A DNA stretch of 64,000 nt from an uncultured Verrucomicrobiae bacterium (lineage in GTDB: Bacteria; Verrucomicrobiota; Verrucomicrobiia; Chthoniobacterales; UBA10450): assembly GCA_963798305.1 (NCBI GenBank), contig CAWCST010000004.1, positions 21,425-85,424 on the forward strand, in the 5' to 3' direction. This document shows, piece by piece, positions 43,061-62,063 of this stretch (positions are counted from its first letter, which is position 1; each line of letters opens with the position of its first letter). The translations under genes were made by a program, and so were the position numbers. A model generated the notes under the pieces. The model was not told where the DNA came from. It did not search any database and saw only the letters and a program-made list of their open reading frames with translations.

Positions 43061-43134
43061 TACCCCGTGGTGTAACGGTAACACAGCGCCCTTTGGAGGC
43101 GTTATTCTTGGTTCGAATCCAAGCGGGGTAGCCA
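43061..43134 (+). tRNA. tRNA-Gln (anticodon UUG), CCA encoded
   Basis: Manual cloverleaf. Acceptor TACCCCG/CGGGGTA. D arm GTGT-AACGGTA-ACAC. Anticodon arm GCGCC-CTTTGGA-GGCGT (anticodon TTG). T arm CTTGG-TTCGAAT-CCAAG. Discriminator G plus CCA. Confidence 0.95.
43098..43134 (+). repeat. attL-type core: 37-nt 3' end of tRNA-Gln, repeated exactly at 62019..62055
   Basis: GGCGTTATTCTTGGTTCGAATCCAAGCGGGGTAGCCA is identical at both positions. Confidence 0.9.
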
Positions 43135-43414
43135 AGCTCTCAAGCGGGGATTTACCCATGAAGATTGGTGATTTTCTGAATGCGCAGCGATCCGAACCAA
43201 AACGCCAAAATCCGCAGTCTATTTGTCAAGTATTCGTCAAGCAGAGTCTTCTCAATTAGCCGCACGCTCGGCTTCAGTCGCGCGGCGCTGTGAGGCGTAA
43301 CTGGCAGGCGAGACTCTTATCAGGCTTCAATTCTTAGCTTTTGGCGTGTTCTCAGGCGACTTTTTGCCGGGCCTCAAGGGACTAAAACGAAGTTGCCTGA
43401 TTTGTAATCGAGAA

Positions 43415-43548
43415 AGCCATTTTTGCCGGCTTTAGCTATCGTTAGCTATCTATTGTAAATTAGCAACTTAGATGGATTTTCTGCATTTGAGTTTTAGCCA
43501 AGATTAGCCATTTTTGGCCCTTTTTTCGAGCTAGCGTATACAATTGCG
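43415..43548. repeat. cluster of iteron/arm-site-like short direct repeats in an AT-rich non-coding stretch
   Basis: TTAGCTATC at 43432 and 43442. TTAGCAAC at 43460. TTAGCCA at 43494 and 43504. AGCCATTTTTG at 43415 and 43506. Tandem GTATACAATT at 43526 and 43539. Confidence 0.6.
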
Positions 43549-43606
43549 GTATACAATTTCGATGATCCGCTTGGCCGCTAAAGTTTCGCCGCGTGCTCCC
43601 GAGAAA

Positions 43607-43657
43607 TCAGAACCGCGTCGTCTCAAGTTTCTCGATGAAGTCCCCGCGACCGATTAC
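43607..43657 (-). pseudogene. remnant of the 3' end of an XRE-family gene (paralog of 56310..56561)
   Basis: The reverse strand reads ..VIGRGDFIEKLETTRF-stop. The intact XRE gene ends ..NRIHDFIEKLETTRF-stop. About 36 nt are roughly 90% identical (TCAGAA.CG.GTCGT.TCAAGTTTCTCGATGAAGTC). Confidence 0.6.
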
Positions 43658-43675
43658 CAAAACAGTGGGTTCGAG

Positions 43676-43704
43676 CCCTGTAGGCTCCGAGGTTTTTGTA
43701 TTAC
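43676..43704. repeat. dispersed short repeat, copy A (CCYGTAGGCTCCGRGG...TGTATTAC family)
   Basis: CCCTGTAGGCTCCGAGGTTTTTGTATTAC. Related to the copies at 46481 and 49788. Abuts the XRE remnant. Confidence 0.6.
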
Positions 43705-43894
43705 AAAAAGTCTCGCGCAGCACCCTCGGATGCCGCTCGAAATGTTCGGCGTGTTTGCCGAACAGCTTTCTCTGACAAATCTTGAATCTTTAGATACGAC
43801 CACAATTTCCAATCCGGCCTTTTGCAGCCTCGGGTGTGAGAGGCGGTAACCGCCAAGCGCACCCCGACCGAAGGCGCTCAGCTTGTTCGATTAG

Positions 43895-46327
43895 TTATTC
43901 CGTGTGCAATGCTTGCACCGGATCGACCATCGTTGCTCGGCGCGCGGGAATGAGGCAGGCGATCAGCGATATCGCGCTCATGATTGCGGCAGTGCCGAGG
44001 AGGATCGTTAAGTGAAGTGGCGGCACGTCAAACAAAACAGTTTGCATGGCTTTGCCGGCCAGCCACGCCCCGAACAAACCGACGATAGTTCCGGCGGCGA
44101 GCAGGCGCAGGCCTAACGAGAGGAATTGCGCTCCGATCTGCTCGCGTTGCGCACCGAGCGCCATGCGAATGCCGATCTCACGCGTCCTTTGTGCGACCGC
44201 GTAACTCAACACGCCGTAGGTTCCGATGGCCGCGAGCAGCAAAGCGACGCCGGCGAAAATTCCAGCGAGTAATGCTGGCGAGCGTCGCGTGATCAAGCTG
44301 TCCGCGATGCGCGTGTCCATCGAACGAATGTTATCGACCGCCAGTGCGGGATGCGCTGCGCGCACCAGCTTGCGCAGCGTCTCGGCGAACGCTTCCGGGC
44401 GCTGGCTTGTACGGGTGACGATGAAAATACTCTCCTTGTCGCGATAAGCGTAAGGCAGGTAAACCGCGCCTTGCCCCTGCACTTCGGTGAGCGCGGCTTG
44501 CTTCACTGCGCCGACGACGCCGACAACTGTAAACAGCTGCGCGTCGTCTTTTTCGTCCCCGAGCGCGATCCTTTGGCCGAGCGCGCCGCCGTTAGGCCAG
44601 TAACGCCGGGCCAAATCTTCGTCCACTACACAGACGCGTTCCGCGCGGTGGGAATCTGCCGAGGTGAGGAAGCGTCCTTCGCGCAGGTCAATACCGAGGG
44701 CCGAGAAGTACTCGCCGTGAACGGCATAGGAATAATGGCCGTGCACTGATTGCCCCGGAGGTGGCACATAGCCCTTAGGTGTGACTGCGGTTTTGCCGCT
44801 GTCGCCGCTTAACGGAATGTTCGTGATCGTTCCGGTGGCGGCGATTCCCGGTTGCTGGCGGATGGATTCGAGCAAGCGATCGACGATGCCGACTCGCTCC
44901 CGCTGCAGATCCCATGAGACGGTGCACTCGCCGGTAAGAACGTGATCTGAGCGAAATCCTGGCGAAACCGCCATCGCTTTTTTCAGGCTCAGGCCGAGCA
45001 GAGCCGCACCCGCGAGCAAGACAAATGCGAGCGCAATCTGCGCGACGATGAATCCGTGGCGCAGCCGTTGCGCGGCGCGGCTAATTGTGCCGCTGCGCGA
45101 TTCCGATTGGAGCGCATGCGCCAGATGCGTGCTCAGGTTGAACCAGGCGATAGGTAACGCGATGACGACTCCGAGAACCACGGCGCCAGCGAGGCCGATG
45201 GACGCCAGCCAGCCATTGAACGCGATATGCGCGCCGAGCGGCAAGCGATCTGCCCCGAGAACTTCGAGCAACCGAATTCCCCACGCGCCTACCGCCAGGC
45301 CGAGCAATCCGCCGACGAAAGTCAGAAGAACGGTTTCGATGATTACTTGTCTCACGACATGCACGCGACTCGCGCCCATCGATCGCCGAATCGCCATTTC
45401 TTTCGCCCGCCCGCTCGCACGAATCAAAAGAAGATTGACCAGATTTACCGCGCCGATGAACAAGAGAAAAAATACTCCGGCTTGCATTAGCCACAGGGTT
45501 GGACGAATGGAGCGGACGTGCTCTGCGTGCAATGGCCTAACGAGTGATCGGAAGCCGGCTTCGGCCATCATTTTCGCTTCAGGATTATCTTCCTCGACGG
45601 CGGCGTTGTGCGCATCGATCTGGGCTTGCGCTTCCGCGATCGTCGCGCCCGGTTTCAATCGCGCGATCATGTGCGTGACGCCGCCGCCAGAGTGACGCGC
45701 TTTCGGCCCACGCTCTTCCATATCGGATTTTATCGGAAGAAAAACGCGCGCCTCGGACGATAGAAAACGAAAAGCAGGAGGCAAGACGCCAACGATCTTT
45801 CTTGGGATACCGTTTATGCGGGTATCACGACCCAGAATGTTTGGATCGGAATTGAAACGCTCCCGCCAGAATTCATCCGTCAGGATAATCACGTTCGTAT
45901 GGGGGTCGGTCTCTTTATCGGTGAAGTTGCGACCGATGGCGGGCTTAACACCAAGCGTCGTGAAAAATTCCGGCGAGATGCGCACGATTTCCTCCTGTTG
46001 CATGGAGCCCGGATCACCGACGGTTTCGGCTCTCTCCATATACATGGAAAGGCTCGAGAAGGCCGGGATGTTGCCACGACGCTCGTAGTAATTGGTGATC
46101 GACGAACCATCATTCTCGATTCCGGCTTTCGGATAGGTGTTGAAGATCGTCACCAGCCGATCGGATTGCGGAAACGGAAGCGGCCGGAGCAAAATTGAAT
46201 CGATCACAGCGAAGATCGCGAGGTTCGCGCCGAGACAAATCGCAATCGTGGCCAGTGCGGTGACAGTGAACGCCGGTGCTTTGCCAAGTTGGCGAAGGGC
46301 GAATCGCAGGTCAGTAATCATAACCAC
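43895..46327 (-). CDS. ADOP-type duplicated FtsX/MacB-like ABC transporter permease (orphan permease)
   Basis: Intact 810-aa ORF. The N-terminal DLRFALRQLGKAPAFTVTALATIAICLGANLAIF is typical of this family. Two MacB_PCD/FtsX halves. No adjacent ATPase or PadR gene. Confidence 0.85.
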   Translation of the reverse strand: MVMITDLRFALRQLGKAPAFTVTALATIAICLGANLAIFAVIDSILLRPLPFPQSDRLVTIFNTYPKAGIENDGSSITNYYERRGNIPAFSSLSMYMERAETVGDPGSMQQEEIVRISPEFFTTLGVKPAIGRNFTDKETDPHTNVIILTDEFWRERFNSDPNILGRDTRINGIPRKIVGVLPPAFRFLSSEARVFLPIKSDMEERGPKARHSGGGVTHMIARLKPGATIAEAQAQIDAHNAAVEEDNPEAKMMAEAGFRSLVRPLHAEHVRSIRPTLWLMQAGVFFLLFIGAVNLVNLLLIRASGRAKEMAIRRSMGASRVHVVRQVIIETVLLTFVGGLLGLAVGAWGIRLLEVLGADRLPLGAHIAFNGWLASIGLAGAVVLGVVIALPIAWFNLSTHLAHALQSESRSGTISRAAQRLRHGFIVAQIALAFVLLAGAALLGLSLKKAMAVSPGFRSDHVLTGECTVSWDLQRERVGIVDRLLESIRQQPGIAATGTITNIPLSGDSGKTAVTPKGYVPPPGQSVHGHYSYAVHGEYFSALGIDLREGRFLTSADSHRAERVCVVDEDLARRYWPNGGALGQRIALGDEKDDAQLFTVVGVVGAVKQAALTEVQGQGAVYLPYAYRDKESIFIVTRTSQRPEAFAETLRKLVRAAHPALAVDNIRSMDTRIADSLITRRSPALLAGIFAGVALLLAAIGTYGVLSYAVAQRTREIGIRMALGAQREQIGAQFLSLGLRLLAAGTIVGLFGAWLAGKAMQTVLFDVPPLHLTILLGTAAIMSAISLIACLIPARRATMVDPVQALHTE

Positions 46328-46391
46328 TTCGTGTGGCAGGACACTTCCTCAGTATTATTCAGTGCGCAACGCCGGGACCGGATCGACAAGT

Positions 46392-46424
46392 GTCAAAAAG
46401 GTTCGGACCCCTCGGCTTCAAGGG
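46392..46424. repeat. dispersed short repeat, degenerate copy B-prime
   Basis: GTCAAAAAGGTTCGGACCCCTCGGCTTCAAGGG compared with GACAAAAAGGTACCGGACCCCGTAGGCTCCGAGG. Confidence 0.45.
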
Positions 46425-46480
46425 CTCGACCCAGGAGAAATCACCCGTTTCCGGTTGCCGTTTCTGGCGCAATTTAGCCT

Positions 46481-46516
46481 CAAATGACAAAAAGGTACCG
46501 GACCCCGTAGGCTCCG
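46481..46516. repeat. dispersed short repeat, copy B
   Basis: CAAATGACAAAAAGGTACCGGACCCCGTAGGCTCCG. This 36 nt is identical to 49788..49823. Confidence 0.8.
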
Positions 46517-46589
46517 AGGAATTTCTGTAATACGCAAAGTATTCCTGGACGCCGTGCTTGTTAGGCCAAAGCGGCATGATCGAAAGAAA

Positions 46590-47192
46590 TCAATCAACTT
46601 TGTACACGCGGCCGGTTTGCGCCCCCAAGATAGCGCGTTTGTAGGCTTGTCCAACTTTCCATCCTTCGACCGGAATCATGCCGATGAAGAACTGGGCAAA
46701 TTGAGATTCGGATTCTTTTAGCATCGTGGGACTCACCACATTGATACGCAATCCCTTAGGAAGCTCAATTGCGGCAGCCCGAACAAAAGCTTCCAACGCG
46801 CCCGAGACAGTTGAAGCCGCGACGCCGGCAAAGATCGGTTCGTCATTGAGAATGCCCGAAACCAAAGTGAAGGATCCTTTTTCTTTGATGAACGGGATCG
46901 CCTCCTGAACCAGATTGATTTGACCCATGAGTTTGCTTCCCAACGAAAACTGCCACTTTTCAGCGGTGAGTTCCGAAAGCGGAGCAAATGCGACTTCGCC
47001 TGCTGCAATGGCCACGGCATCAAACGAGCCGACGGCTTGATAAAGCTTCCTGAAACTTTCGCGGTTCTCGATCTCGACTTGAAAATCGCCAGATTTGTGA
47101 CCGACCTTGACTATCTCATGGCCAGCACCCGCCAATGCCTTTTGAACCAGTTCCCCGATCTTTCCGTTTGCGCCAATTAAAATAATTTTCAT
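46590..47192 (-). CDS. short-chain dehydrogenase/reductase (small, atypical SDR)
   Basis: MKIILIGANGKIGELV.. Rossmann start. Intact. The upstream Met at 47231 is less likely. Confidence 0.75.
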   Translation of the reverse strand: MKIILIGANGKIGELVQKALAGAGHEIVKVGHKSGDFQVEIENRESFRKLYQAVGSFDAVAIAAGEVAFAPLSELTAEKWQFSLGSKLMGQINLVQEAIPFIKEKGSFTLVSGILNDEPIFAGVAASTVSGALEAFVRAAAIELPKGLRINVVSPTMLKESESQFAQFFIGMIPVEGWKVGQAYKRAILGAQTGRVYKVD

Positions 47193-47259
47193 AAAAACTC
47201 CATTCTGCCTGCTTAGGGCTTGTTGTGTCATTCGATCACTTCGTTACTCCGATTGCATG

Positions 47260-47275
47260 TCAGTTAACTAACTCA
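47260..47275. promoter_or_regulatory. candidate TetR operator, copy 1 (upstream of SDR 46590..47192)
   Basis: GTCAGTTAACTAACTC contains the palindrome AGTTAACT. An identical 16-mer lies at 49613..49628, next to the TetR start. Confidence 0.5.
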
Positions 47276-47366
47276 CTAACGCGATGCGCATTTTACGATG
47301 CTCCCTTTCAGGCTTTGCCGTGTGAGCCTGCGGGTTCAGGCCGCCTGGCGTCTCACAAGCTTCGAA

Positions 47367-48146
47367 TTAATCGTGTGTTCTGAACATACGATCGACCGAT
47401 CGGCTCATTTGTTTCAAAATAAATCCAGGCGCCACGCGACTCATCATTTTGAGTTGATTCGCCTGACCTGGACGAATTTCAAATCGATCGGTTTGCATTC
47501 CTTTGACAGCGACTTTGACCATGTCTTCCACCTTCATGATAGAAGCGCCTTTCATGTCTTCAGCATCAAAGTCACCCAAGAGTTCGGTTTGTGTCGCAGG
47601 CGGTGCCAGGTCAAATACCTTCACTTTGGTGTTTTTCAGTTGCACACGAAGAGACTCGGTGAACGAATGCAGACCGGCCTTGGTGGCGCAATAAACCGGT
47701 GAAATGGGCAATGGAACAAATGCCAAACTCGATGAAACGTTCATGATTGCCGCCTCTGATTTTGTTTTCAAATGCGGCAAGAATTGTTTCACCATGCGAA
47801 TCGGCCCGCTCAAATTGATTTCAATCTCTCGAGTGATGTCTTCGAGGTTGCCAGCTTTGTCGTGAACATTGATCTTACGCATGATGCCGGCGTTGTTGAT
47901 CAAAATGTTGAGCTCGGGAAATTGTTTGGTGACCTCTTCGTAAAGAGTGGCGATCGCTTCCGGATCGGAAACGTCGCTTTGAAAGGTGTGAATTTTTGGA
48001 AAGGCCGCTTTCGCACGGTCCATCTTAGCCTGATCGCGGCCCGTGATAAGAACCGTGTTACCAAGTGCCGCGAGTTGTTTGGTGAGTTCGTAACCGATGC
48101 CGCTGGCACCGCCGGTGATCAAAATCGTATTGCTTGTGAGTTTCAT
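47367..48146 (-). CDS. SDR family oxidoreductase (DltE-like)
   Basis: ILITGGASGIGYEL, NNAG, and the YCATKAGLHSF catalytic YxxxK. Intact. Confidence 0.85.
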   Translation of the reverse strand: MKLTSNTILITGGASGIGYELTKQLAALGNTVLITGRDQAKMDRAKAAFPKIHTFQSDVSDPEAIATLYEEVTKQFPELNILINNAGIMRKINVHDKAGNLEDITREIEINLSGPIRMVKQFLPHLKTKSEAAIMNVSSSLAFVPLPISPVYCATKAGLHSFTESLRVQLKNTKVKVFDLAPPATQTELLGDFDAEDMKGASIMKVEDMVKVAVKGMQTDRFEIRPGQANQLKMMSRVAPGFILKQMSRSVDRMFRTHD

Positions 48147-48162
48147 AATTGCTTGCTCATTC

Positions 48163-48990
48163 TCAGGCCTCCGCCCGAGCGATTGCCGGCGCGGGCGTGC
48201 TCGCGAGCGCTTTACCAATCATGTCCGCCTCCATCTTCCGCGCAAGAGAAGCGGGCACGAGGGCGTTCATGATCCGGTTCAGCCGGCCCGGAACTATTCT
48301 GGACCGGTTTTCCCGCAGCGCGTTAAGGCCCTCGGATACGCACTGCTCCACGCTCAACGGCTTCATCGGCATGGTCCGCGGGTCGAATCCGAACTTTTCG
48401 AGCACCTCTGTGTTCGTAATCCCGACTGCCAGTACAGTGACGTAGACACCTAGAGGTTTGAACTCATAGTGAAGCGCCTCGCCAAGGCTGTGTACATACG
48501 CCTTCGCGCCTCCGTCATTCGCTATACGGGGAATACCGTTTTCCGCACCCATTGCCCCCACGAGGATCAAGCCGCCCCGCCTCCGCTTGGCGAGTTTCGC
48601 GCCGAAATGGTGACTGATGTCCAAATGCGCCATCGTATTGAGCCGCAAAGTCGCCTGAAGCAACAGCCGATCGAGCTTCAGGAACTCGCCCGGATTTGCG
48701 GTGCCGGCATTGGAGACGACAAGCCCGATGTCGATATCGTGCGTAGCGTCGGCGAGTCCCGCTATGAATCCCTCTTGTGAGAGGTCCATAGCCAAGGCGC
48801 GGTGCTGAACATCAAACTCCTGTGAGATGGCGCGTCCCAGTTCGGCAAGCAATGCGTCTCGCCTGGCCACCAGCACTACGTTGATCCCCGACGCTGCGAT
48901 TTGCCGCGCGAACTCCTTACCGATTCCCGACGAAGCGCCCGTGACGAGTGCCCAGGGTCCGAACTGTCCTTTATCAAGCGTTGCTTTCAT
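48163..48990 (-). CDS. SDR family oxidoreductase
   Basis: ALVTGASSGIGKEFA, SNAG. Intact. Confidence 0.8.
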   Translation of the reverse strand: MKATLDKGQFGPWALVTGASSGIGKEFARQIAASGINVVLVARRDALLAELGRAISQEFDVQHRALAMDLSQEGFIAGLADATHDIDIGLVVSNAGTANPGEFLKLDRLLLQATLRLNTMAHLDISHHFGAKLAKRRRGGLILVGAMGAENGIPRIANDGGAKAYVHSLGEALHYEFKPLGVYVTVLAVGITNTEVLEKFGFDPRTMPMKPLSVEQCVSEGLNALRENRSRIVPGRLNRIMNALVPASLARKMEADMIGKALASTPAPAIARAEA

Positions 48991-49037
48991 CGTTTCGTTC
49001 CTTCTGTCGATTGCACCTGTTGCTCGATTGTTCGGTC

Positions 49038-49607
49038 TCACAGCGTGCCGATCCAATCTTTCAGGCGTTTTACCTCCATCACCACCAAGTCGGGGTCATT
49101 AGCGGCGTGTGCCACCGCAGCAATACCCTGAAAAGCACAGAAGAGATGCGCGGAAAGTTCTCGTGCATCCTCTTCATGGCCGGCCGCGCGGAATTGCTCC
49201 TCGAGCCAACCCATTGGCTCGGTGAAGAGTGCCGCGGATTTCTTTGCGAGAGCGCCGCCCTCCTTGTGCAACTCGGAACACAAGCCACCCAGCGGACATC
49301 CCCCACGCGCAAGCTGCTCCCGGTTCCCATGAACGGTTTCCACAAAAGCAAACAGCCGCTCCTTCGGAGAACTCAACCGGTCCATCTCCTCCCGCAATTC
49401 TCGAAATTGCGCCAAGCGCCGCTCCACAACGGCCTCGCCAAGTTCTTCCTTGGTCTTAAAGTAGTAGTAAACGTTCCCTACCGGAACATGGGCGGCTTCG
49501 GCGATGTCCGCCAGGCTCGTCTCTCTGAAACCGTTCCGATACGCCAGCTTCATGGCGGTCTCAATCAGCCGTGTCCGTTTGTCTGGTTGTGGTTTATCCT
49601 TGCCCAT
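49038..49607 (-). CDS. TetR/AcrR family transcriptional regulator
   Basis: RLIETAMKLAYRNGFRETSLADIAEAAHVPVGNVYYYFKTKEEL. Intact, 189 aa. Confidence 0.9.
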   Translation of the reverse strand: MGKDKPQPDKRTRLIETAMKLAYRNGFRETSLADIAEAAHVPVGNVYYYFKTKEELGEAVVERRLAQFRELREEMDRLSSPKERLFAFVETVHGNREQLARGGCPLGGLCSELHKEGGALAKKSAALFTEPMGWLEEQFRAAGHEEDARELSAHLFCAFQGIAAVAHAANDPDLVVMEVKRLKDWIGTL

Positions 49608-49612
49608 TTTGA

Positions 49613-49628
49613 GTCAGTTAACTAACTC
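49613..49628. promoter_or_regulatory. candidate TetR operator, copy 2 (6 nt upstream of the TetR start codon)
   Basis: Exact repeat of GTCAGTTAACTAACTC. Confidence 0.5.
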
Positions 49629-49787
49629 TAAGCTCGTTTCCCCCGTGTTGTCAATCCCCACCGCGTGCCAATTTGTGCCTGACGCGCATCATGCCGCCTT
49701 CGTCGATACGCTTGGCCCGGAGCCAGATCGCTCTCTCGTCATGCTCCAGAGCATTTGGGGATGCCGCAGCCGGCTAAAGAAAAGCCG

Positions 49788-49823
49788 CAAATGACAAAAA
49801 GGTACCGGACCCCGTAGGCTCCG
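49788..49823. repeat. dispersed short repeat, copy C
   Basis: Identical 36 nt to copy B, followed by GGATTCTTGTATTAC. Confidence 0.8.
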
Positions 49824-49939
49824 GGATTCTTGTATTACATTAATTATTTATTCGACGACTATCCTTATCAACCTCACACAAACTCGACTCTCGTTAGGCC
49901 AATTTGGGTTCAAGGCCTAGCATCTGATTCATCCACAAA

Positions 49940-50410
49940 CTAACGTTTCGGCCACGCACGCAGTGCGATATCCGCAACTCGCCGTAGTTGATCCTGATTA
50001 GCTCCATCGGCTCCATGGACGGCCATTCCGTGCAGCACCGTCATCACATAACTGGATAGTTCGGCTGGGTCGGCGTTTGGCGGAAGATCGCCTTCCCGCT
50101 TTGCTCGCTGAAGGCGGCGACGTAACGCAGCTTTGGCTGCGGCGCGGCGCGCGCCTATTTCCTTCCGAACAGATCCGGCCGCATCTCCGCACGCCAGCGC
50201 ACCCTGGACCACAAGGCATCCTGCTGGAGTCCGCGGGTCACTCGCCATGTTGGCCGGCGCCGAGGAAAATTTGTTCGATAACATCCCGCGCCTTCCGCGC
50301 CGCCAGAGCTTTCTGAAAATAAGCGAGCGGTCCGTTCATGTACCGATCAAGAACTTTGCGGAAGAGCTGCTCCTTGTTCCCGAAAGCTGCATAAAGACTC
50401 GGCCAATTGC
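49940..50410 (-). pseudogene. TetR family regulator fragment (N-terminal HTH lost, one frame break at ~50285)
   Basis: ORF 49940..50284 is a TetR C-terminal ligand domain. Upstream in another frame reads ..PSLYAAFGNKEQLFRKVLDRY.., the end of a TetR HTH. There is no start and no helix 1-2. Confidence 0.65.
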
Positions 50411-50415
50411 CCGAT

Positions 50416-51405: not shown

Positions 51406-51410
51406 TCCGT

Positions 51411-51433
51411 GCCCATGCCTGTGAGGCATGGGC
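51411..51433. promoter_or_regulatory. perfect 10-bp-arm palindrome in the LysR/SDR divergent region (candidate LysR box)
   Basis: GCCCATGCCT-GTG-AGGCATGGGC. It contains a T-N11-A-type core (TGCCTGTGAGGCA). Confidence 0.4.
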
Positions 51434-51487
51434 GCAGAGCAAACAAAGCATTATTCAGCGGCGCCACAAGAGGCCGACCTTTACGAT

Positions 51488-53672: not shown

Positions 53673-53740
53673 ATGAAAACAAAGCAGATCGAAATTCCAG
53701 GTCCAGATCACCCGATTTCCATCCAGCGCAATCCCGCACG
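53673..53740 (+). pseudogene. 5' fragment duplicate of the DUF427 gene
   Basis: MKTKQIEIPGPDHPISIQRNPAR compared with MKTKQIKLPGPDHPISIQPNPAR at 54639. About 67 nt are roughly 88% identical, including 4 nt before the ATG. The sequence then diverges. Confidence 0.7.
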
Positions 53741-53820
53741 CTTCGCGCCGCAGCCGACTGACGTATGGGCGTTAAACATGACAGAGAACTCTAGCTCACC
53801 CGAATTGAGAGCTACGTAAG

Positions 53821-54591: not shown

Positions 54592-54638
54592 CGCGGGCGC
54601 GCGAACGACTGAATAAGCGCAAAAGGGGGAGCCTGAAC

Positions 54639-55022
54639 ATGAAAACAAAGCAGATCAAACTTCCAGGTCCGGATCATCCGATTTCCATCCAGCCCAATCC
54701 GGCTCGCGTTGTCGTATCCGTCGCGGGCCGTGTGGTTGCCGATACCCGCAACGCCCTGACGCTCCGCGAAGCGTCGTATCCGCCCGTTCAATACATTCCA
54801 AGTGAGGACGTGGATTTTTCCCAGTTGGAACGGTCGGATCACGCAACTTACTGTCCTTATAAAGGCGACTGCAGTTATTACCACATTCCTGCTGGAGGAA
54901 AGAAGTCCGTCAATGCGGTGTGGTCGTATGAGGATCCGTTTCCTGTCGTAGAGCAGATCAGAGAGCACGTCGCGTTCTATCCCGATCGCGTCGATGAGAT
55001 AGCAGAGCAACCCGCAATGTGA
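54639..55022 (+). CDS. DUF427 domain protein
   Basis: VVVSVAGRVVADTRNALTLREASYPPVQYIP...YCPYKGDCSYY...AVWSYEDP...VAFYPDRV. Confidence 0.8.
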   Translation: MKTKQIKLPGPDHPISIQPNPARVVVSVAGRVVADTRNALTLREASYPPVQYIPSEDVDFSQLERSDHATYCPYKGDCSYYHIPAGGKKSVNAVWSYEDPFPVVEQIREHVAFYPDRVDEIAEQPAM

Positions 55023-55054
55023 AGAATCAGCAACAGACTAAGAGGACAAATTCA

Positions 55055-55457
55055 ATGAACCCAACCCAACAAGAAACAAATAAGGCACTCGTTCTTGAGG
55101 CTTTTGACACCCTTTTCAACAAACGTGACTACGCAGCGGCTGAGCGCTATTGGTCGCCCAACTACATACAGCACAGCGATCACATCGCCCCCGGACGTGA
55201 AGGTCTGTTTGATTTAATCAAGAGCATGCCGTCGGAGTTCAAGTATGAACCGGGCATGATTGTGGCCGAGAAAGACTTGGTGATCGGTACACGGGCGATT
55301 TTCCGGCTTTGGCCAGCCCGTGAACTGGATTGCAGCGGACATCCTTCGCATCAACGACGGCCTTCTGGTCGAGCACTGGGATGTCATCCAGGACGAAAAG
55401 ACACGCGCGCAGTCCAAGAGCGGCCTTCCTATGTTCGGCGACAAGTTTCGTGAGTGA
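55055..55457 (+). CDS. SnoaL-like / NTF2-fold protein; one frame break at ~55290
   Basis: NKALVLEAFDTLFNKRDYAAAERYWSPNYIQHS. After the frame change it reads ..NWIAADILRINDGLLVEHWDVIQDE..-stop at 55457. Confidence 0.7.
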
Positions 55458-55475
55458 GCACGCGGATTTGAACCG

Positions 55476-56192
55476 ATGAACGACCTATTGAACCTCGCTA
55501 TCAAAGCGCACGGCGGCCTCGAACGTTGGAGGCAAGTGCGAAGTCTGCAAGCCAAGGTCACGTTGAACGGTACTCTTTGGCGGATCAAGGGACGGCCCAA
55601 CGGCCTGCCTGGTGTACTCATGCGGGCTGACACGAGGCAGCCCGCACTGACAATGACTCCTTTCCCAAGTCCCGGCAGCGTCGGGCATTTTACAACGGAT
55701 CGCGTGTGGATTGAGGGCGAGAATCATAAGCTTGTCAGCGAACTCAACAAGCCACGAGACTCATTCACCGGTGCCGTCCTCACGACGAAGTGGAACGAAC
55801 TCCAGGAACTCTACTTCGCTGGCTACGCATTCTGGAATTACTTCACGACTCCGTTCCTACTGGCTCAGCCTGGCGTTGAGGTCGAAGAGATTGAGCCTCA
55901 TAAGGAGGATGGTGAAATCTGGCGACCGCTCAGCGTAATCTTCCCACCTGAGATTCCCACCCACTCCGCTCACCAGACATTTTATTTCAATGACAAGGGC
56001 CTTCTTCAGAGGCATGACTACGCCACTGACGTGGCAGGCGGTGTGGCCTCTCACTATTGTTTTGATCATGTCACATTCGACGACATCGTCGTCCCAACTT
56101 TCCGCCGGGTGGTCAAACGCCGAACCGACGGCCCCGTTATCCATGGTCCGACCGCAGTGCTTATAGTGATAAGCGACGTTTCGCTGAGCTGA
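55476..56192 (+). CDS. conserved hypothetical protein (238 aa)
   Basis: Intact ORF in a co-directional run with the preceding genes. No family recognised. Confidence 0.55.
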   Translation: MNDLLNLAIKAHGGLERWRQVRSLQAKVTLNGTLWRIKGRPNGLPGVLMRADTRQPALTMTPFPSPGSVGHFTTDRVWIEGENHKLVSELNKPRDSFTGAVLTTKWNELQELYFAGYAFWNYFTTPFLLAQPGVEVEEIEPHKEDGEIWRPLSVIFPPEIPTHSAHQTFYFNDKGLLQRHDYATDVAGGVASHYCFDHVTFDDIVVPTFRRVVKRRTDGPVIHGPTAVLIVISDVSLS

Positions 56193-56309
56193 GTTGGGGG
56201 ACTCTCAAGGGTTAGCGATCTTCTGCAAAACAACGTTCGGAGGTCACGCACGTGCCTTTACCCGGGGGAGCGCCAGTTTGTGTGCTGGTGTTGCAGACGG
56301 CCTGATCTA

Positions 56310-56561
56310 TCAGAAGCGAGTCGTTTCAAGTTTCTCGATGAAGTCGTGAATTCGATTGCCAGGTGGGCGGGACGGAAAAAGTTCCTGCACAGCCATTTTG
56401 AGAACTTCCGCTAAGTACAGCAGTGTCTTGTCGTCCACATACGAAAGGCGCGCCTCGATTTTGGAAACACCGCTCCTGCTGATGTCGAAACCGGCAAGCT
56501 GAAGCTTGGTCGCAAGATCTGATTGCGACCAGCCCAGCGCGTATCGCCGCGGGCTTACCAT
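56310..56561 (-). CDS. XRE family HTH transcriptional regulator (short)
   Basis: LGWSQSDLATKLQLAGFDISRSGVSKIEARLSYVDDKTLLYLAEVL. Confidence 0.75.
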   Translation of the reverse strand: MVSPRRYALGWSQSDLATKLQLAGFDISRSGVSKIEARLSYVDDKTLLYLAEVLKMAVQELFPSRPPGNRIHDFIEKLETTRF

Positions 56562-56587
56562 GTGAGTCTCTTATAGCTAGTGGTTTA

Positions 56588-56607
56588 CGATTTTGACCGA
56601 TTTTGAC
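56588..56607. repeat. perfect tandem 10-mer (CGATTTTGAC x2) upstream of the XRE gene
   Basis: Seen directly in the sequence, 27 nt upstream of the XRE start. Possible operator. Confidence 0.4.
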
Positions 56608-56798
56608 GGTGCCCCGCTGATCTCCGCCAAACTGGTGGGCTTGGACGCTACTTGGACGTTTTTCAGCCTCGAATGGCCGCAACACGGGCGGGGTTACAAG
56701 CATGCGCGGTGAAACAATCGTCGATGTCAGACTGCAAGTTGCGGTAGTGCCAGGCCACCCCTGATTTCGCAGAAACCGATCTCGCGACGACGCGACTA

Positions 56799-57344
56799 TT
56801 AGGGAGCTGGGGTCGAAGAAACCTGGCCTGCCTTCTCCAGCTCCGAGATGGTCGCACGCAACTCGGCAGTGCGTTCGCGGACTGCATCCTCAAGGGCGGC
56901 GCGTTGATTATCGAGAAGCAGGTGCGCCCGGCGGCTCTTGAGGAGATTGCGAATACGCAAAGCGACCTCGATGTGATCGAGCGGCTTAAGCAGAAAGTCC
57001 GTTGCTCCCGCTTCGAGTGCGCGGCGCTTCGTTTCCTCATTTGTGTCCGCGGTTAGAACAACGACCGGTAGAAAGCTTTCGTCCCACTCGGTACGAAGCG
57101 AATCGAGAATGGCGAAGCCATCCGGGGGTGGCATCATCAAGTCGAGCAGGATCAGGTCCGGCTGAAAGTTCTTGCAGATGTTGAGCGCGAGTTTGGAATC
57201 CGTGACCGATTCCAGGCGAGTGTAACCGTTCTCAACCAGGATGTCTTCGAGCAGCTCGACATTCACCGGCTCGTCGTCGATCAAGAGGATTTTCATTTTG
57301 GCGAGTTCCGCCGAATCATCATGCCACCGGTTTGCCGTATTCAT
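56799..57344 (-). CDS. response regulator (REC plus C-terminal coiled coil)
   Basis: KILLIDDEPVNVELL, LILLDLMMPPPDG, DFLLKP. The start overlaps the upstream kinase stop by 4 nt. Confidence 0.85.
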   Translation of the reverse strand: MNTANRWHDDSAELAKMKILLIDDEPVNVELLEDILVENGYTRLESVTDSKLALNICKNFQPDLILLDLMMPPPDGFAILDSLRTEWDESFLPVVVLTADTNEETKRRALEAGATDFLLKPLDHIEVALRIRNLLKSRRAHLLLDNQRAALEDAVRERTAELRATISELEKAGQVSSTPAP

Positions 57345-59620
57345 GATCGAACTTCGGTCAGATGCCCGTCAGAACGAGCGGCCGTAGTGGAGCATTTTCC
57401 ATTGTTGGCCGCAGTCGTTCTGTCCAACACGCGGAAAAACTCGTCCACATCCAGTGGCTTGGTCAGATAAGCATCCGCTCCCGCCGTCATCAGCCGGTTG
57501 ATCTGATGCGTGGTGGCGTCGGCACTGATGACAACGACCGGAATATCGCGAGCAGTCTCGGACGACTTCAACTCCGAAATCACTTCGCGCCCATCGATAT
57601 CCGGCAGGTGAACGTCGAGCAGGATGAGATCTAGTGAATGCTGGCGCGCCAAATCAAGGCCGACCTTACCTTGCATGGCTGTCAGCAATTCGATCTCGGG
57701 CCGTTCCTCGAGCATTTGCTCGATCAACGTCAGATTGGAAAGGTTGTCCTCGATGTAGAGAATCTTGCGATTCGCGGACTTGGGACGCGCTCCGCGGCCG
57801 TTGCCGTTTTTCTTGGGCGACGAACCCTTTTGCAACGGCGATTTGGTCCGGGGAAGTTCAAACCAGAAGGTGCTGCCTTTGCCAACTGTGCTTTCGACGC
57901 CGATCGAACCGCCCATCGCCTGCATCAGGCGCTGCGAAAGAGCGAGGCCGAGGCCAGTTCCCTCCACAGTCGACTGTTCGGCACCGAGACGCTCGAATGG
58001 TGTAAACAACCGCTCGAGTTTTTCGTTCGGAATTCCAGGGCCAGTGTCGCGCACAACAATCCGGACGTTCTCATCGCCGTTAGCGTTGTGGGAGACGCTG
58101 ACGGTTCCTGAAACCGGCGTGTACTTCAGCGCGTTCGTCAGCAGATTGAGCAAGACTTGCTTCAACCGCTGCCGATCCGCCAGCACGAACACCGAATCGT
58201 CGAATGACGCTGGCGTCGAAAGCTGTATACTGCGCTCGGCAGCGAGTGGACGTATCAAGTCGAGCGCCTCGGTAAGGGCATCGGCGGCACAAACGGGCTC
58301 CAGCGAAAGTTGCATCCTGCCTGATTCGATGCGGCTGATATCGAGGACTTCGTTGATCAGCTCAAGAAGATGTTTTCCGGCGCTTAAGATGTGATGAATG
58401 CGTGTGCGCTGCGTTTCGGTCGGATTTTGCCGTTCCAGCAATTGCCCGAATCCGATAATCGCATTGAGCGGCGTGCGGAGTTCGTGACTGACACGCGAGA
58501 GGAATTCACTTTTGGCTTTGTTTGCCCGCTCTACTTCCTCAACACGCTTCCGTTGAGTTATGTCTTCGACGGTGCCCTCGTAGTACAGGATCGCTCCGGT
58601 CGCATCCCGGACGGCGCGGGCATTTACGCAGAGCCAAATCTTGCTGCGATCCTTGCGGTAGCTCTCGTACTCAAACAGCTCCACAAATCCCTTCGCCTCA
58701 ATTAGCCGCTTGAACTCGTTCCGACGCTCGGAATCCACATATAGGATCTGGCCGATGTCACTAATCGTCATGAGCTCTTCCGGCGAATCGTATCCGTACA
58801 TTCGTGCCAGCGCCGGATTTGCGCTGAGACACTTTCCGTCAGGAGTAGTCTGAAACATGCCCTCGATGGCGCCTTCAAATATGAGTCGATATTTCTCTTC
58901 CGCTTTGCGCAGCGCGCTGTCTTGGGACTGAATCCGGGCCAACATTCGATTGAAGGCATCCGTCAGAGCGCCCACTTCGTCGCTGCACACTTTGTTTGCA
59001 CGGACGGAGTAGTCGTTATGGTCTGCGACCGTACGCGCGGTGCCAGCGAGCCGAAGGATCGGATCGGTAATGAAACGCAGAAATTGACTGGAAAGAACGA
59101 ACGCGACAAGGAGCGAGGCGACGAGAACCAGAGCAAAGATGCCGCCGTACAGTTTTAGCAGCTGCGATGTCAGGGCATGCAAATCGGCCAAGAGGTAGAG
59201 AGTTCCCTCGCGCGCGTCACTCAGCATCACTGGCTGCGCCAGGAGGATGCGATCCCGGTCGATGCGGAAACCCGATCTCAATCGCGCTGCTTTGATTTCG
59301 GTCTCATCCTGTGCGGTTCCAAAAAAAGCCAGCCGCTGCTGGTCCACGAGCTCAAGCCGTGCACTAACAAGCTGCGGCATGGTCCTAAGTCCCCCAAGGA
59401 TCTGGGCGGCGGCATCCTCATCCTTGAACATGACCGCTGCGGCACAGTTGTGGGCCGTGATCTCGCCCACGACGGCCAGTTCGTGGGCGGAGTGCTGTTT
59501 TAAGGTGTAGGCTTGGAAATAGAATAGGGCCGCAAATGCAAGGAGCAGCACTGCGCCCGTGATCACCATGATCACGAAGGTGATTTTTTGCCGGATAGGT
59601 CGATCGCGCAGGTTTTGCAT
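57341..59620 (-). CDS. hybrid sensor histidine kinase (CHASE8-like N-terminal sensor, HAMP, PAS, HisKA, HATPase, REC)
   Basis: Intact 759-aa ORF with a canonical H-box FLSRVSHELRTPLNAIIGF, DTGPGI, GTGLGLALS, and a C-terminal REC (ILYIEDN...LILLDVHLPDIDG). Confidence 0.9.
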   Translation of the reverse strand: MQNLRDRPIRQKITFVIMVITGAVLLLAFAALFYFQAYTLKQHSAHELAVVGEITAHNCAAAVMFKDEDAAAQILGGLRTMPQLVSARLELVDQQRLAFFGTAQDETEIKAARLRSGFRIDRDRILLAQPVMLSDAREGTLYLLADLHALTSQLLKLYGGIFALVLVASLLVAFVLSSQFLRFITDPILRLAGTARTVADHNDYSVRANKVCSDEVGALTDAFNRMLARIQSQDSALRKAEEKYRLIFEGAIEGMFQTTPDGKCLSANPALARMYGYDSPEELMTISDIGQILYVDSERRNEFKRLIEAKGFVELFEYESYRKDRSKIWLCVNARAVRDATGAILYYEGTVEDITQRKRVEEVERANKAKSEFLSRVSHELRTPLNAIIGFGQLLERQNPTETQRTRIHHILSAGKHLLELINEVLDISRIESGRMQLSLEPVCAADALTEALDLIRPLAAERSIQLSTPASFDDSVFVLADRQRLKQVLLNLLTNALKYTPVSGTVSVSHNANGDENVRIVVRDTGPGIPNEKLERLFTPFERLGAEQSTVEGTGLGLALSQRLMQAMGGSIGVESTVGKGSTFWFELPRTKSPLQKGSSPKKNGNGRGARPKSANRKILYIEDNLSNLTLIEQMLEERPEIELLTAMQGKVGLDLARQHSLDLILLDVHLPDIDGREVISELKSSETARDIPVVVISADATTHQINRLMTAGADAYLTKPLDVDEFFRVLDRTTAANNGKCSTTAARSDGHLTEVRS

Positions 59621-59874
59621 GGTACCTCAACTCCCGATTTCGGGGGTTTAAGAGCTACTTTCGAGCCGAGCGGAAGAAAGAAATTCCGCCGTGTGCCAAC
59701 GGGTTCTCAAGCAAGCAAAACTCATGCGACCGCGGCACCTGCTGGAGTGCGGTGGTAATGGAACGTATTTTGCTTCGCAAGGGCCGGGCGGACGGCCCCT
59801 CCGCAACACCTGCACTGGCAGCCTGACTTCTCAAACTCAAGAAAATACAAGATCAGCATCTTCGGAATTACTTC

Positions 59875-61797
59875 ATGAATCTATACACACCCGAGGTCGA
59901 GAACCCGCAAGAGCCGGCACAGCTCAAGCGCGAAACACCAAAACAGTTTGCAAGCGCGCATGGTTCTTTGGAATCCGGACGTAAGAGTAATGGCCTCTTG
60001 ACTGCCGCTCTACTGGTTGCGGTGGCGATAGCTATGGGCTTGGGGTTCTGGAAACTATCACGTCAGTTAGCGCCTCAGCTAGTCAGTTCGCCCACATCGA
60101 CACAGGACGGCAATGCGACGTTGCTGCCGGAAAGGAGTGTCGCGGTGCTCCCTTTCGAGAATCTTGGCGAGGATAAGGAAAATGCGTTCTTGGCCGACGG
60201 TGTGCAGGACGACATTCTCAGTGCACTTTCTAAAGTCGCCGATCTCAAAGTCATCAGCCGCACTTCAGTCAACACTTACACTACTGGCACGCCGCGCAAC
60301 CTACCCGAGATCGCCAAAACCCTGGGAGTTGCTTACGTCTTGGAGGGAAGTGTTCGCCAAGTCAGTGAAAAGGTACGCATCACCGCTCAACTAACCGATG
60401 CTCGCACAGACACTCATTTGTGGGCCGAAAGCTACGAGCGCGATTTGGGCAACGTCTTCGCAATCCAGAGCGAGATCGTGCAGCGAATTATCTCGCAACT
60501 CCAAGCCACAGTCTCATCCAAAGAGAAAGCCGCGATTGCAGAACGCCCGACCAAGAATCTCGCCGCCTACGGGGTTTATGTGCGAGCGAAGGCGCTCATC
60601 GCGACCATTTCTCTCAATGCTCAAATCAACGAAAAACTACGCGAAGCCGTTCAGTTGCTCGATAAAGCGATCGCGCGCGACCCGGATTTCTATCTCGCGT
60701 ACTACGAGTTATCCGCCGCGCACGACTACCTGTATTTCTTTGGTCTGGATCACACGCCGGCCCGTCTTGCGTCGGCGGAGGCTGCGCTGAATGCTGTCGT
60801 TCGCCTGCGCCCTGATGCGGCCGAGACGCACCTCGCTCGAGCCAACTTTTTCTACCGCTGCTATCTTGATTATGATCATGCGCGCACGGAGCTCGCCCTT
60901 GCCCAGCGCGCTTTGCCGAACAATTCGGAAATCTTCGAGTTAACCGGCTACATGGATCGCCGCCAAGGACTATGGAACGAATCTGCTCGGAGTTTGCAAA
61001 GAGCTCTCGAACTCGATCCGCGCAACTTTTTTATGCTCCAGCAGATAGCGCTAAGTTACCAGGAATTCCGGCAGTTTGGGGCGATGGCTGCTGCCTTAGA
61101 CCGTGCTCTTGCCTTGATTCCTCGTGATCTCGACACGCGCGTGACTCGCGCTCTGGTCGATTTGGAGTGGAAGGCCGACCCGCGGCCTTTGCACGAGATT
61201 GTCAGAAGAATCTCGGCCGAAGATCCGGCAACGGCGGCAGATCTGGCGGCTCAATGGTTCTATGTTGCGCTTTGCGAACGCGATCCGGCCGCAACCGCGC
61301 AAGCTCTGGCTGCGATGCCGGCAAGCGGCACATCCGTTGACCTGAACTTTCCACGCTCGTGGTGCGAAGGGTTCGCCGCCCGCGTCAGAGGTGATGCTGC
61401 TGCAGCGCAAACCGCTTTCCTCGCAGCGCGCGCCGAAGTCGAAAGAACGGTGAGCGAGCAACCTAATTATGGTCCGGGTTTCGCCGTGCTCGGACTAATT
61501 GATGCCGGACTCGGCCGCAAAGAAGAAGCACTTCGCGAGGGGCGTCACGCTGTTGAGCTACTGCCTATTACCAAAGATTCTATCGACGGCGCAGAGCTGG
61601 TGAAATATCTCGGCGTTATCTATGCCTGGTGTGACGAGAAGGATCTTGCCATTCAGCAAATAGCGGCGACGCTGCGGATCCCAAGTACTTTAAGCTATGG
61701 CAACTTGAAACTGCATCCCTATTGGGATCCGCTGCGCGGTGAACCGCGTTTCGAGAAAATTGTGGCTGACCTGGCACCGAAGAAGCCCGAGAAATAG
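59875..61797 (+). CDS. membrane-anchored TolB-N-like / TPR repeat protein
   Basis: Intact 640-aa ORF with one TM helix. SVAVLPFENLGEDKENAFLADGVQDDILSAL and ..VAYVLEGSVRQ.. (a TolB-N-like module), then TPR-like repeats. Confidence 0.75.
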   Translation: MNLYTPEVENPQEPAQLKRETPKQFASAHGSLESGRKSNGLLTAALLVAVAIAMGLGFWKLSRQLAPQLVSSPTSTQDGNATLLPERSVAVLPFENLGEDKENAFLADGVQDDILSALSKVADLKVISRTSVNTYTTGTPRNLPEIAKTLGVAYVLEGSVRQVSEKVRITAQLTDARTDTHLWAESYERDLGNVFAIQSEIVQRIISQLQATVSSKEKAAIAERPTKNLAAYGVYVRAKALIATISLNAQINEKLREAVQLLDKAIARDPDFYLAYYELSAAHDYLYFFGLDHTPARLASAEAALNAVVRLRPDAAETHLARANFFYRCYLDYDHARTELALAQRALPNNSEIFELTGYMDRRQGLWNESARSLQRALELDPRNFFMLQQIALSYQEFRQFGAMAAALDRALALIPRDLDTRVTRALVDLEWKADPRPLHEIVRRISAEDPATAADLAAQWFYVALCERDPAATAQALAAMPASGTSVDLNFPRSWCEGFAARVRGDAAAAQTAFLAARAEVERTVSEQPNYGPGFAVLGLIDAGLGRKEEALREGRHAVELLPITKDSIDGAELVKYLGVIYAWCDEKDLAIQQIAATLRIPSTLSYGNLKLHPYWDPLRGEPRFEKIVADLAPKKPEK

Positions 61798-61807
61798 GCA
61801 GTCGGAA

Positions 61808-61880
61808 ACCGCCGTCCGTGAAGAATGCGTTCTCCTGATTTGCGCTCAGATTTTCGAATGGAAGCAATTCCAGCGGGGAA
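61808..61880 (-). pseudogene. short fragment of a TolB-N-like module gene (paralog of the 59875 gene), reverse strand
   Basis: The reverse strand reads ..LLPFENLSANQENAFFTDG.., then breaks off. Confidence 0.45.
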
Positions 61881-62020
61881 TCTTTCAACGAAGTCACGAT
61901 TTCGTTCGCGAGAGCGGATTGTTCGACGTGCAAATCACATTTATGATGCCGTTTCCTGGCACGCCGCTCTGTGCGCGGCTGCGCAACGAAGGCCGAATCC
62001 TGGAAGAAGAAGCGTGGGGG
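61865..62020 (+). pseudogene. C-terminal fragment of a radical SAM (B12-binding-type) protein
   Basis: ..DFVRESGLFDVQITFMMPFPGTPLCARLRNEGRILEEEAWG.. has no N-terminal part and runs straight into attR. Confidence 0.5.
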
Positions 62021-62055
62021 CGTTATTCTTGGTTCGAATCCAAGCGGGGTAGCCA
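62019..62055 (+). repeat. attR-type core: displaced 3' end of tRNA-Gln
   Basis: Exact 37-nt copy of 43098..43134. No tRNA 5' half is present upstream. Confidence 0.9.
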
Positions 62056-62063
62056 GCCCCGGT

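Follow-up and report, generated by a model that had tools for sequence, protein, structure and literature searches.

How does an 18.9-kb block of accessory genes come to lie between an intact tRNA-Gln gene and an exact copy of the 3′ end of that gene, when no recombinase is encoded between them, and is such a block still able to move? The question is raised by a 64-kb stretch of DNA (here called the window) from contig CAWCST010000004.1 of assembly GCA_963798305.1, a metagenome-assembled genome (MAG) of an uncultured Verrucomicrobiae bacterium of the order Chthoniobacterales. A preliminary description of this DNA had proposed that the block is a genomic island, either immobilised and decayed or mobilised in trans. 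The results presented below make it probable that the island was delivered into tRNA-Gln by a tyrosine integrase specific for the anticodon loop, belonging to a soil family that we call int091-type, that the integrase end was later lost, and that the island is now a fixed, non-autonomous remnant.

The tRNA-Gln gene and its displaced 3′ end

Both ARAGORN and Rfam call a single tRNA in the window, the intact tRNA-Gln(UUG) on the plus strand at 43061-43134 (RF00005, 62.6 bits), which contains the core of the left attachment site, attL. Its 74-nt sequence is identical in 16 related loci. The last 37 nt of the gene, running from the first base of the 3′ anticodon-stem strand to the CCA end, are present in the window in two exact copies on the same strand, the left one at 43098-43134 and the right one at 62019-62055. 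No further match to the 37-mer was found in the window with three mismatches permitted, and 100 shuffles gave no match. Ungapped extension lengthens the repeat to 41 nt with a single mismatch (A37 in the tRNA vs. G at 62018), the left copy then beginning at 43094, such that the tRNA identity of the right copy ends inside the anticodon loop. The right copy is thus a displaced 3′ tRNA-Gln fragment, the remnant of the core of the right attachment site, attR. A 12-nt echo, TCAAGCGGGGAT, directly follows the CCA end of the tRNA and is common to the window and to locus L102, another island at tRNA-Gln described below.

An intact tRNA gene accompanied by a displaced fragment of the same gene, in direct orientation and on the same replicon, is the arrangement by which islands of the Islander type are defined. 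These findings bear out the preliminary description, which had reported the intact tRNA-Gln(UUG) and the exact 37-nt copy of its 3′ end about 18.9 kb downstream, and had seen no 5′ half upstream of the right copy. The right copy was considered as a second tRNA and rejected: a single tRNA is called by both programs, and a relic of a radical-SAM gene lies upstream of the right copy. A composite or tandem island with internal attachment-site remnants was likewise rejected, as the window holds no more tRNA-like fragments.

Empty sites in related genomes

The host flanks of the island are recognisable on both sides. On the left, a response regulator gene (41091-41831, plus strand) and a gene for a cNMP-binding histidine kinase (41842-43026, plus strand), both assigned by Pfam, lie directly upstream of tRNA-Gln, and the same pair is found there in every relative whose contig reaches this point (L002-L009, L150, L151). 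The kinase orthologues, which come from Chthoniobacterales (Verrucomicrobiota) MAGs and soil metagenomes, are 65-80% identical at the amino acid level, and 8/8 species-level relatives keep the gene order response regulator, kinase, tRNA-Gln. On the right, the host flank (62056-63842, minus strand; Pfam and synteny) consists of an 8-nt spacer, a GH75-like gene (62064-63452) and a Tmemb_14 gene (63459-63842).

In L150, whose kinase is 80% identical to that of the window, the end of tRNA-Gln is separated from the GH75 stop codon by 8 nt, exactly the spacing observed at the right repeat of the window, and the next 26 nt after the tRNA are homologous (GTTCCGGCCTAACGAGTCGGTGAGGT in L150 vs. GCCCCGGTCTAACGAGCCGGTGAGGT in the window). 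Furthermore, GH75 and Tmemb_14 are situated 60-400 nt after tRNA-Gln in L004, L005, L006, L008 and L009, and tRNA-Gln and GH75 are also adjacent in L094. The unoccupied target, attB, therefore exists with the same flanks in related genomes; in the window genome it would read tRNA-Gln followed by GCCCCGGTCTAACGAG. Among 80 metagenome loci anchored on GH75, this neighbourhood is variable and often includes an extra gene for a 360-400-aa protein, a Ser/Thr kinase gene or a small GIY-YIG open reading frame (ORF); the genes of the window island are never found between tRNA-Gln and GH75. The absence of any island gene at this site in relatives, together with the empty sites, allows us to conclude that the segment is an insertion at the tRNA and not an ancestral region. 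The earlier interpretation of the repeat as the scar of site-specific integration into a tRNA 3′ end is supported in this way: the empty site that the preliminary description had suggested looking for is present in L150 and others, and relatives do not all carry the same 19 kb.

The small GIY-YIG ORF, of about 90 aa, lies directly 3′ of tRNA-Gln in L009 (11267-11633), L002 (5442-5717), L065 (~14700-14920) and L091 (~8200-8360). In L009 it forms a 340-nt insert with a 27-nt duplication of the tRNA 3′ end at its boundary. This nuclease gene may thus be a mobile cassette in its own right, directed at the 3′ end of the tRNA.

Search for mobility genes

The bounded segment (43135-62018) contains accessory genes only, and its Pfam-annotated ORFs tile about 92% of it. 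No recombinase, transposase, excisionase, relaxase, coupling-protein or type IV secretion system (T4SS) domain was found by Pfam in these ORFs. The sole sizeable ORF gap lies at 43135-43894; six-frame translation of this left-end gap (766 nt), searched together with the unassigned ORFs, gave no Pfam family at E ≤ 1. When five full-length int091-family integrases served as tblastn queries, no integrase remnant was detected anywhere in the window. Weak matches at 13.1-14.1 kb were non-collinear and overlapped an Asp-protease/ArsR pair, and were treated as noise. The island thus lacks the tyrosine or serine recombinase gene of its own that the Islander-type definition includes, and it shows none of the Pfam domains by which an integrative and conjugative element (ICE) or an integrative and mobilizable element (IME) would be recognised; an origin of transfer was not searched for. 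Phage structural, packaging or replication genes were also missing from the island by Pfam. A phage origin was rejected, since the 37-mer, the integrase peptides and the 22-mer described below were all without a match in IMG/VR. The earlier statement that no recombinase, conjugation or phage gene is present agrees with each of these searches.

An integrase family that uses the same target

Extra tRNA-Gln 3′ fragments were found in three related loci, L102 and L091 among them. L102 carries a 6.8-kb integrase-less tRNA-Gln island with genes for an acyl-CoA dehydrogenase, both electron transfer flavoprotein (ETF) subunits, alpha and beta, an Fe-S oxidoreductase and an HNH-like ORF; its attR fragment is truncated on the 3′ side and abuts the start codon of a kinase gene. 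In L091, a tyrosine integrase gene starts 59 nt from a 47-nt tRNA-Gln fragment, and L143 has the same layout. The distribution of these fragments indicates that tRNA-Gln is a recurrent integration hot spot in the order Chthoniobacterales.

The N-terminal 238 aa of the L091 integrase, used as a query, retrieved 686 proteins at E ≤ 1e-10. The best 120 of the 686 are 84-98% identical, about 381 aa long, mostly assigned to PF00589 and derived almost entirely from soil metagenomes. We define int091-type elements here as those with a tyrosine integrase of this ~381-aa family, targeting the tRNA anticodon stem-loop. The 15 integrase loci examined (L091, L143-L146, L153-L162) have a constant layout (15/15): host flank, tRNA 3′ fragment from G28, GTGGATTTACC, about 18 nt, TTGACTAATACTTGACAAATAG, 27-28 nt and the integrase start codon. 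Since G28 lies in the 5′ anticodon-stem strand, intact elements include both halves of the anticodon stem. The target beside the integrase gene is tRNA-Gln in L091 and L143, tRNA-Lys(UUU) in L144-L146 and a non-tRNA site in L153-L162. The genes downstream of the integrase are of unknown function, or encode ParB_N, or BT4734_N together with DUF3987 (P4-type primase/helicase-like). The non-tRNA target of the L153-L162 type is the 5′ end of a gene for a 274-aa protein, and the anticodon stem-loop of tRNA-Lys(UUU) is similar to that of tRNA-Gln(UUG). With integrases that are 84-98% identical, the switch from one target to another appears to need very little change in the protein.

The left arm of the island

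The left attachment site of the island looks complete: it has a full tRNA, an element-derived arm (P′) and a 22-mer. The P′ arm (43137-43338, plus strand), delimited by blastn and alignment, is 78% identical over 204 nt to L102 10990-11191. It includes GGATTTACC at 43148-43156; in the outward direction from the core, this is the mirror image of GTGGATTTACC, the sequence next to the core on the integrase side of the int091-type loci. Further out, at 43219-43240 on the minus strand, lies a 22-nt tandem of 11-mers, TTGACGAATAC TTGACAAATAG, which matches the motif of the integrase loci in 21 of 22 positions. In those loci the motif, TTGACTAATACTTGACAAATAG, consists of two tandem 11-mers placed 27-28 nt upstream of the integrase start in all 15 cases. 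The window and L102 carry it with one change, as TTGACGAATACTTGACAAATAG, and are identical to each other in 22/22 positions. Both the window and L102 have a single copy of the 22-mer, at corresponding positions in their attL arms; outside this site, the window shows no enrichment of the 11-mer. Just as in the integrase loci, the motif of the window is found beside the attachment core; there, however, it belongs to the P arm, while here it lies 85 nt from the end of the tRNA, in the P′ (attL) arm.

The 22-mer is a putative arm-type integrase-binding site, which on the P arm would overlap the integrase promoter. Such a role is suggested by its tandem-repeat form, by its invariance in 15 loci and by the agreement of the window and L102 in 22/22 positions, where the rest of the arm is 78% identical. 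The promoter-like -10 element is not conserved in the window, which argues for a binding rather than a promoter function there.

The right junction

At its right end the island carries, next to the tRNA fragment, the remnant of a foreign gene. A relic of a B12-binding radical-SAM gene (DUF4070 region), about 220 nt or 73 codons long and truncated at both ends, was recognised by translation and tblastn at 61800-62018 on the plus strand; its reading frame continues into the tRNA fragment (...FMMPFPGTPLCARLRNEGRILEEEAWGRYSWFES). Pfam gives no match for the relic itself. Its closest database proteins are the DUF4070 (PF13282) C-terminal parts of B12-binding radical-SAM enzymes, and the intact radical-SAM gene of L148 is 67% identical to it over 52 aa at 61883-62038 by tblastn. 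The codons at the junction are GCA TGG GAG CGG TGC in the native L148 gene, CTT TGG AGG CGT TAT in the tRNA and GCG TGG GGG CGT TAT in the window. The sequence thus changes from radical-SAM to tRNA after TGGG and before GGCGTT, between positions 37 and 38, where the anticodon loop meets the 3′ stem strand. The native radical-SAM sequence TGGGAGCGG resembles the tRNA core TGGAGGCGT by a short similarity (TGG..GCG), and a switch point inside this stretch also accounts for the one mismatch near the end of the 41-nt repeat.

This hybrid attR has no 5′ anticodon-stem strand, no P arm and no integrase. Its tRNA identity begins at T34/G38 as compared to G28 in the integrase-bearing elements, and the radical-SAM relic occupies the place where those elements have the start of the integrase gene, 50-60 nt from the fragment. 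Judged from its sequence, the junction has the appearance of a deletion in which the integrase gene and the P arm were lost.

The intact B12-radical-SAM gene of L148 belongs to a variable region (L148 8600-15000, vs. window 25613-27200) just downstream of groEL, and this region is missing from the window. Another part of the region, L148 11400-11433, matches 43801-43769 at the left end of the island over 34 nt (91%, inverted). This match is non-collinear with the relic.

A close relative and the quality of the assembly

Relatives more than 95% identical to the window are represented by short contigs only, of which L001 and L149 end inside the tRNA. Another, L147, an independent JGI Illumina contig of 4557 nt, is occupied at attR; it is 96.8% identical to window 58007-62526 and has the same order of hybrid kinase, TPR gene, relic, tRNA fragment and GH75. 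Compared with L147, the two island genes of the window are 97.8-98.5% identical, the relic and intergenic sequence 96.3-96.4% and the GH75 flank 96.8%. These values are alike in the island and the flank, which means that the two have diverged together, and the sharing of the junction by a 96.8%-identical contig indicates vertical inheritance. The tRNA fragment of L147 has drifted (AAGCGGGG has become AAACGGG) and GGGTAGCCA is present in three tandem copies at its 3′ end (L147 4020-4065); such drift is as expected if the fragment is unconstrained DNA.

As to the quality of the window sequence, the genes dnaK, groEL and pyrB in the left flank are split across frames (21523-25434, 34661-35221), while the less conserved flank genes for the histidine kinase, the response regulator and GH75 are intact. 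Essential genes are hardly genuine pseudogenes, so that indel errors in a long-read consensus are the probable cause. Alignment of the island kinase and TPR genes with the Illumina contig L147 is free of indel columns. Conserved core genes may attract reads of co-occurring relatives in polishing, with the island being population-specific. The preliminary description had stated that the island is almost free of the frame breaks that riddle the flanks; the direction of this contrast was reproduced, but its size is modest (1.42 ORF pieces per kb in the flanks vs. 1.11 in the island), and the island has truncated genes of its own, namely a TetR_C-only fragment, the radical-SAM relic and a relic of an XRE gene.

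Origin and fate of the island

Taken together, the data fit the following course of events. By site-specific recombination, catalysed by a tyrosine integrase, an element would have been inserted into the only tRNA-Gln(UUG) gene of a soil Chthoniobacterales bacterium, within its 3′ part. Integration would have regenerated the tRNA at attL and pushed the original 3′ end 18.9 kb downstream, beside GH75, to form attR. The enzyme most likely came from the ~381-aa soil integrase family that recombines at the anticodon stem-loop of tRNA-Gln or tRNA-Lys. A later deletion at attR would have taken the integrase gene and the P arm, thereby joining a radical-SAM gene of the cargo to the tRNA fragment; it may have arisen by action of the integrase at a core-like secondary site or, equally well, through microhomology. 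Since then the island would have been inherited as ordinary chromosome, together with its redox/detoxification and signalling genes. With neither the left core half-site nor the P arm at attR, the island is expected to be non-autonomous and very probably no longer excisable. Were it mobile, the excised circle would join ...GAAGAAGCGTGGGGGCGTT...GTAGCCAAGCTCTCAAGCGGGG....

Several points weigh against this course of events. The attL junction of the window island is without independent assembly support, the short-read contigs breaking in the tRNA. The secondary-site route is drawn from a short similarity at the junction, for which a microhomology deletion is just as good an explanation. The 5′ end of the relic, next to the TPR stop codon, is also cut, which implies at least one further rearrangement. 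The far (attL) end is absent from every integrase-bearing locus retrieved, so that a P′ arm of the window type has yet to be seen in such an element. The two integrase-less islands, of the window and of L102, share a conserved P′ arm with a perfect 22-mer, which a dedicated non-autonomous family could explain. Finally, the visible genome amounts to 64 kb, and an integrase may be encoded elsewhere.

The strongest competitor, although an unlikely one, is that the window island belongs to a family of integrase-less hitch-hikers, similar to satellites or to cis-mobilizable elements (CIMEs), which keep their attachment sites and P′ arm and are moved in trans, possibly after tandem accretion, by an int091-type integrase whose gene lies at another place in the genome or arrives on an incoming element. 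It would account for the fact that the islands of the window and L102, with unrelated cargo and neither with an integrase, have in common the 204-nt attL arm and a 22-mer that precedes every integrase gene of the family. Helpers should also be common, given how abundant and conserved (84-98%) this integrase family is, and mobilisation of CIMEs in cis by accretion has been documented (PMC5704250). The right ends of the islands speak against it, however. The window attR has neither the 5′ anticodon-stem half-site nor any P arm, the L102 attR fragment is cut on its 3′ side at a kinase start codon, and the fragment of L147 has drifted to three copies of GGGTAGCCA. Moreover, the divergence between the window and L147 is equal in island and flank, with no sign of recent transfer, and no helper integrase was found in the window. 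Of the two alternatives in the preliminary description, the immobilised, decayed island is thus favoured by the defective attR and by the inheritance of the junction in L147, whereas mobilisation in trans is disfavoured. A bolder form of the trans explanation, to which we give slightly less credence still, would make the window island and L102 members of an undescribed class of integrase-less cargo islands in soil Verrucomicrobia, marked by a conserved P′ arm of about 200 nt that bears the tandem 11-mer site of the integrase, and moved in trans from one tRNA-Gln site to another by one abundant, highly conserved integrase family. If this were true, an integrase that also serves tRNA-Lys and non-tRNA sites would be a shared service for many unrelated cargo modules.

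That the 18.9 kb are ancestral and were deleted in the relatives, or that the repeat arose by local duplication or rearrangement with no insertion at all, is very improbable. In its favour, segment and flanks have equal GC content, the island response regulator has its nearest homologue in the same clade beside GH75 (L064, L079; 65-67% aa identity), and the tRNA-Gln-GH75 region varies in this order from 0.06 to 8.6 kb. Against this, independent and precise deletions restoring tRNA, 8 nt and GH75 would be needed in many lineages, none of about 45 related loci has an island gene between the tRNA and GH75, the direct repeat corresponds precisely to the 3′ portion of the tRNA that insertion by an integrase predicts, and the attL arm has a motif of the integrase family in common with another island at the same tRNA.

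Least probable of all is a chimeric join at the tRNA repeat in an error-prone long-read metagenome assembly: the frame-broken core genes of the flank do betray a noisy consensus, and the short-read contigs L001, L149 and L152 all stop inside the tRNA, but a genuine 37-nt repeat would cause exactly such breaks, the independent Illumina contig L147 shows the same attR junction, from the TPR gene through the relic and the fragment to GH75, and L102 has an analogous attL junction with a homologous arm.

Gene content of the island

The cargo list of the preliminary description, with its permease, five short-chain dehydrogenases/reductases (SDRs), TetR, LysR, GlcG, DUF427 and others, was reproduced by Pfam. 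Composition does not set the island apart, its GC content (0.50-0.60) being no different from that of the flanks; a compositional signal was accordingly discarded as an island mark. No Rfam family was found inside the island.

Behind the P′ arm, the left end of the island is an AT-rich non-coding region (43340-43894) with short iterated TTAGC-type repeats, two copies of GTATACAATT, the XRE relic and the first copy of a 65-nt repeat. The copies of GTATACAATT form a tandem pair at 43538-43562, near the XRE relic, and have an operator-like look. The relic itself (43606-43645, minus strand) duplicates the last ~12 codons of the XRE gene (56309-56345; 92% over 37 nt).

A metabolic and regulatory block follows (43895-56192). 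On the minus strand it comprises a MacB/FtsX (ADOP-type) permease (43895-46327), three SDRs (46590-47231, 47367-48218 and 48163-49056), a TetR regulator (49038-49607), a TetR_C-only fragment of a second TetR (49940-50284) and a LysR regulator (50416-51429). An SDR on the plus strand (51428-52264), an HbpS/GlcG-like protein (52224-52769), an alpha/beta hydrolase (52801-53652), the fifth SDR, also on the plus strand (53821-54591), a DUF427 protein (54543-55022), a SnoaL-like protein (55019-55453) and a 238-aa ORF without an assigned family (55476-56192) complete the block. Upstream of the SDR gene at 53821 there is a 73-nt copy of the 5′ end of the DUF427 gene (53669-53741 vs. 54635-54707, 90%), suggesting that this operon gained the SDR gene by insertion or duplication.

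The second, regulatory block (56310-61797) consists of an XRE helix-turn-helix gene (56310-56561), a response regulator (56799-57344) and a hybrid histidine kinase with the architecture CHASE8-HAMP-PAS-HisKA-HATPase-REC (57341-59620), all on the minus strand, and a 640-aa TPR protein on the plus strand (59875-61797). A response regulator ~65-67% identical at the amino acid level to that of the island, together with a different kinase, adjoins GH75 with no tRNA between them in L064 (1725-3046) and L079 (1700-2215); the closest relatives of the island signalling genes are thus found within the same clade.

The 65-nt repeat is dispersed in three direct copies (~43650-43715, ~46475-46545 and ~49782-49850), all within the island, as had been noted before; two of the three are 98% identical over 41 nt. 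Each lies just beyond the stop codon of a minus-strand gene: the ADOP permease, the SDR at 46590 and the TetR_C fragment, respectively. On the minus strand the repeat reads as a GC hairpin, CCGGAGCC/GGGTCCGG, followed by a U-run, and tentatively it resembles a reused terminator module. Folding of the repeat was no better than that of shuffles (z -0.6 to -1.6), and no copy was found among 146 retrieved loci. The repeats were also considered as attC-like or tRNA-like sites; this was rejected in view of their terminator-like minus-strand layout.

Comparison with known systems

Products of secondary-site or aberrant excision of lambdoid prophages, the lambda gal/bio derivatives, have hybrid attachment sites. 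The right junction of the window is similar in that a core-like sequence of a gene outside the attachment site is joined to an authentic core and the integrase-proximal end is lost. Unlike lambda derivatives, the window island has no phage genes, its junction could equally have arisen by microhomology deletion, and this junction is known from its sequence alone.

Attachment sites centred on the anticodon form one of the two main sublocation classes of tDNA islands in Islander (PMC4383910). The window island is like the islands of this class, 'A', in having a regenerated tRNA at one end, a displaced direct 3′ fragment at the other, a block of identity from the anticodon region to the 3′ end, empty sites, and relatives at the same site that encode a PF00589 tyrosine integrase. 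In contrast to them, it is without the integrase gene that Islander filters normally require, and whereas identity starts from G28 in its integrase-bearing relatives, the identity of the window fragment ends in the anticodon loop, where a foreign gene relic abuts it.

CIMEs are decayed ICE or IME remnants flanked by attL and attR (PMC5704250; ICEberg 2.0, PMC6323972). The island resembles them in the loss of mobility genes, in its recognisable attachment repeats at a tRNA 3′ end and in a target that other elements use in relatives. It differs in that CIMEs by definition have usable attL and attR, while the window attR, with its 37 nt, lacks the core half-site and the P arm and may well no longer be usable. 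No conjugation heritage is apparent either, the related integrase-bearing elements having BT4734_N/DUF3987 or ParB_N and not a relaxase or T4SS, and, unlike accreted CIMEs, the window shows no tandem accretion.

These results leave the current understanding of genomic islands unchanged: the type of remnant is common, and it is the host lineage, uncultured Chthoniobacterales, that is poorly studied. The window would provide a clear example of how an island becomes fixed when its integrase end is lost at a core-like secondary sequence. Furthermore, an abundant integrase family is delineated together with its attachment-site architecture, i.e., an anticodon-stem-loop core, the GGATTTACC inverted repeat and a tandem 11-mer. 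For the organism itself, 18.9 kb of the MAG, comprising an efflux-type permease, an SDR/TetR/LysR redox cluster and a two-component system, can now be marked as horizontally acquired accessory DNA, which helps to read strain-level gene content in uncultured soil Chthoniobacterales.

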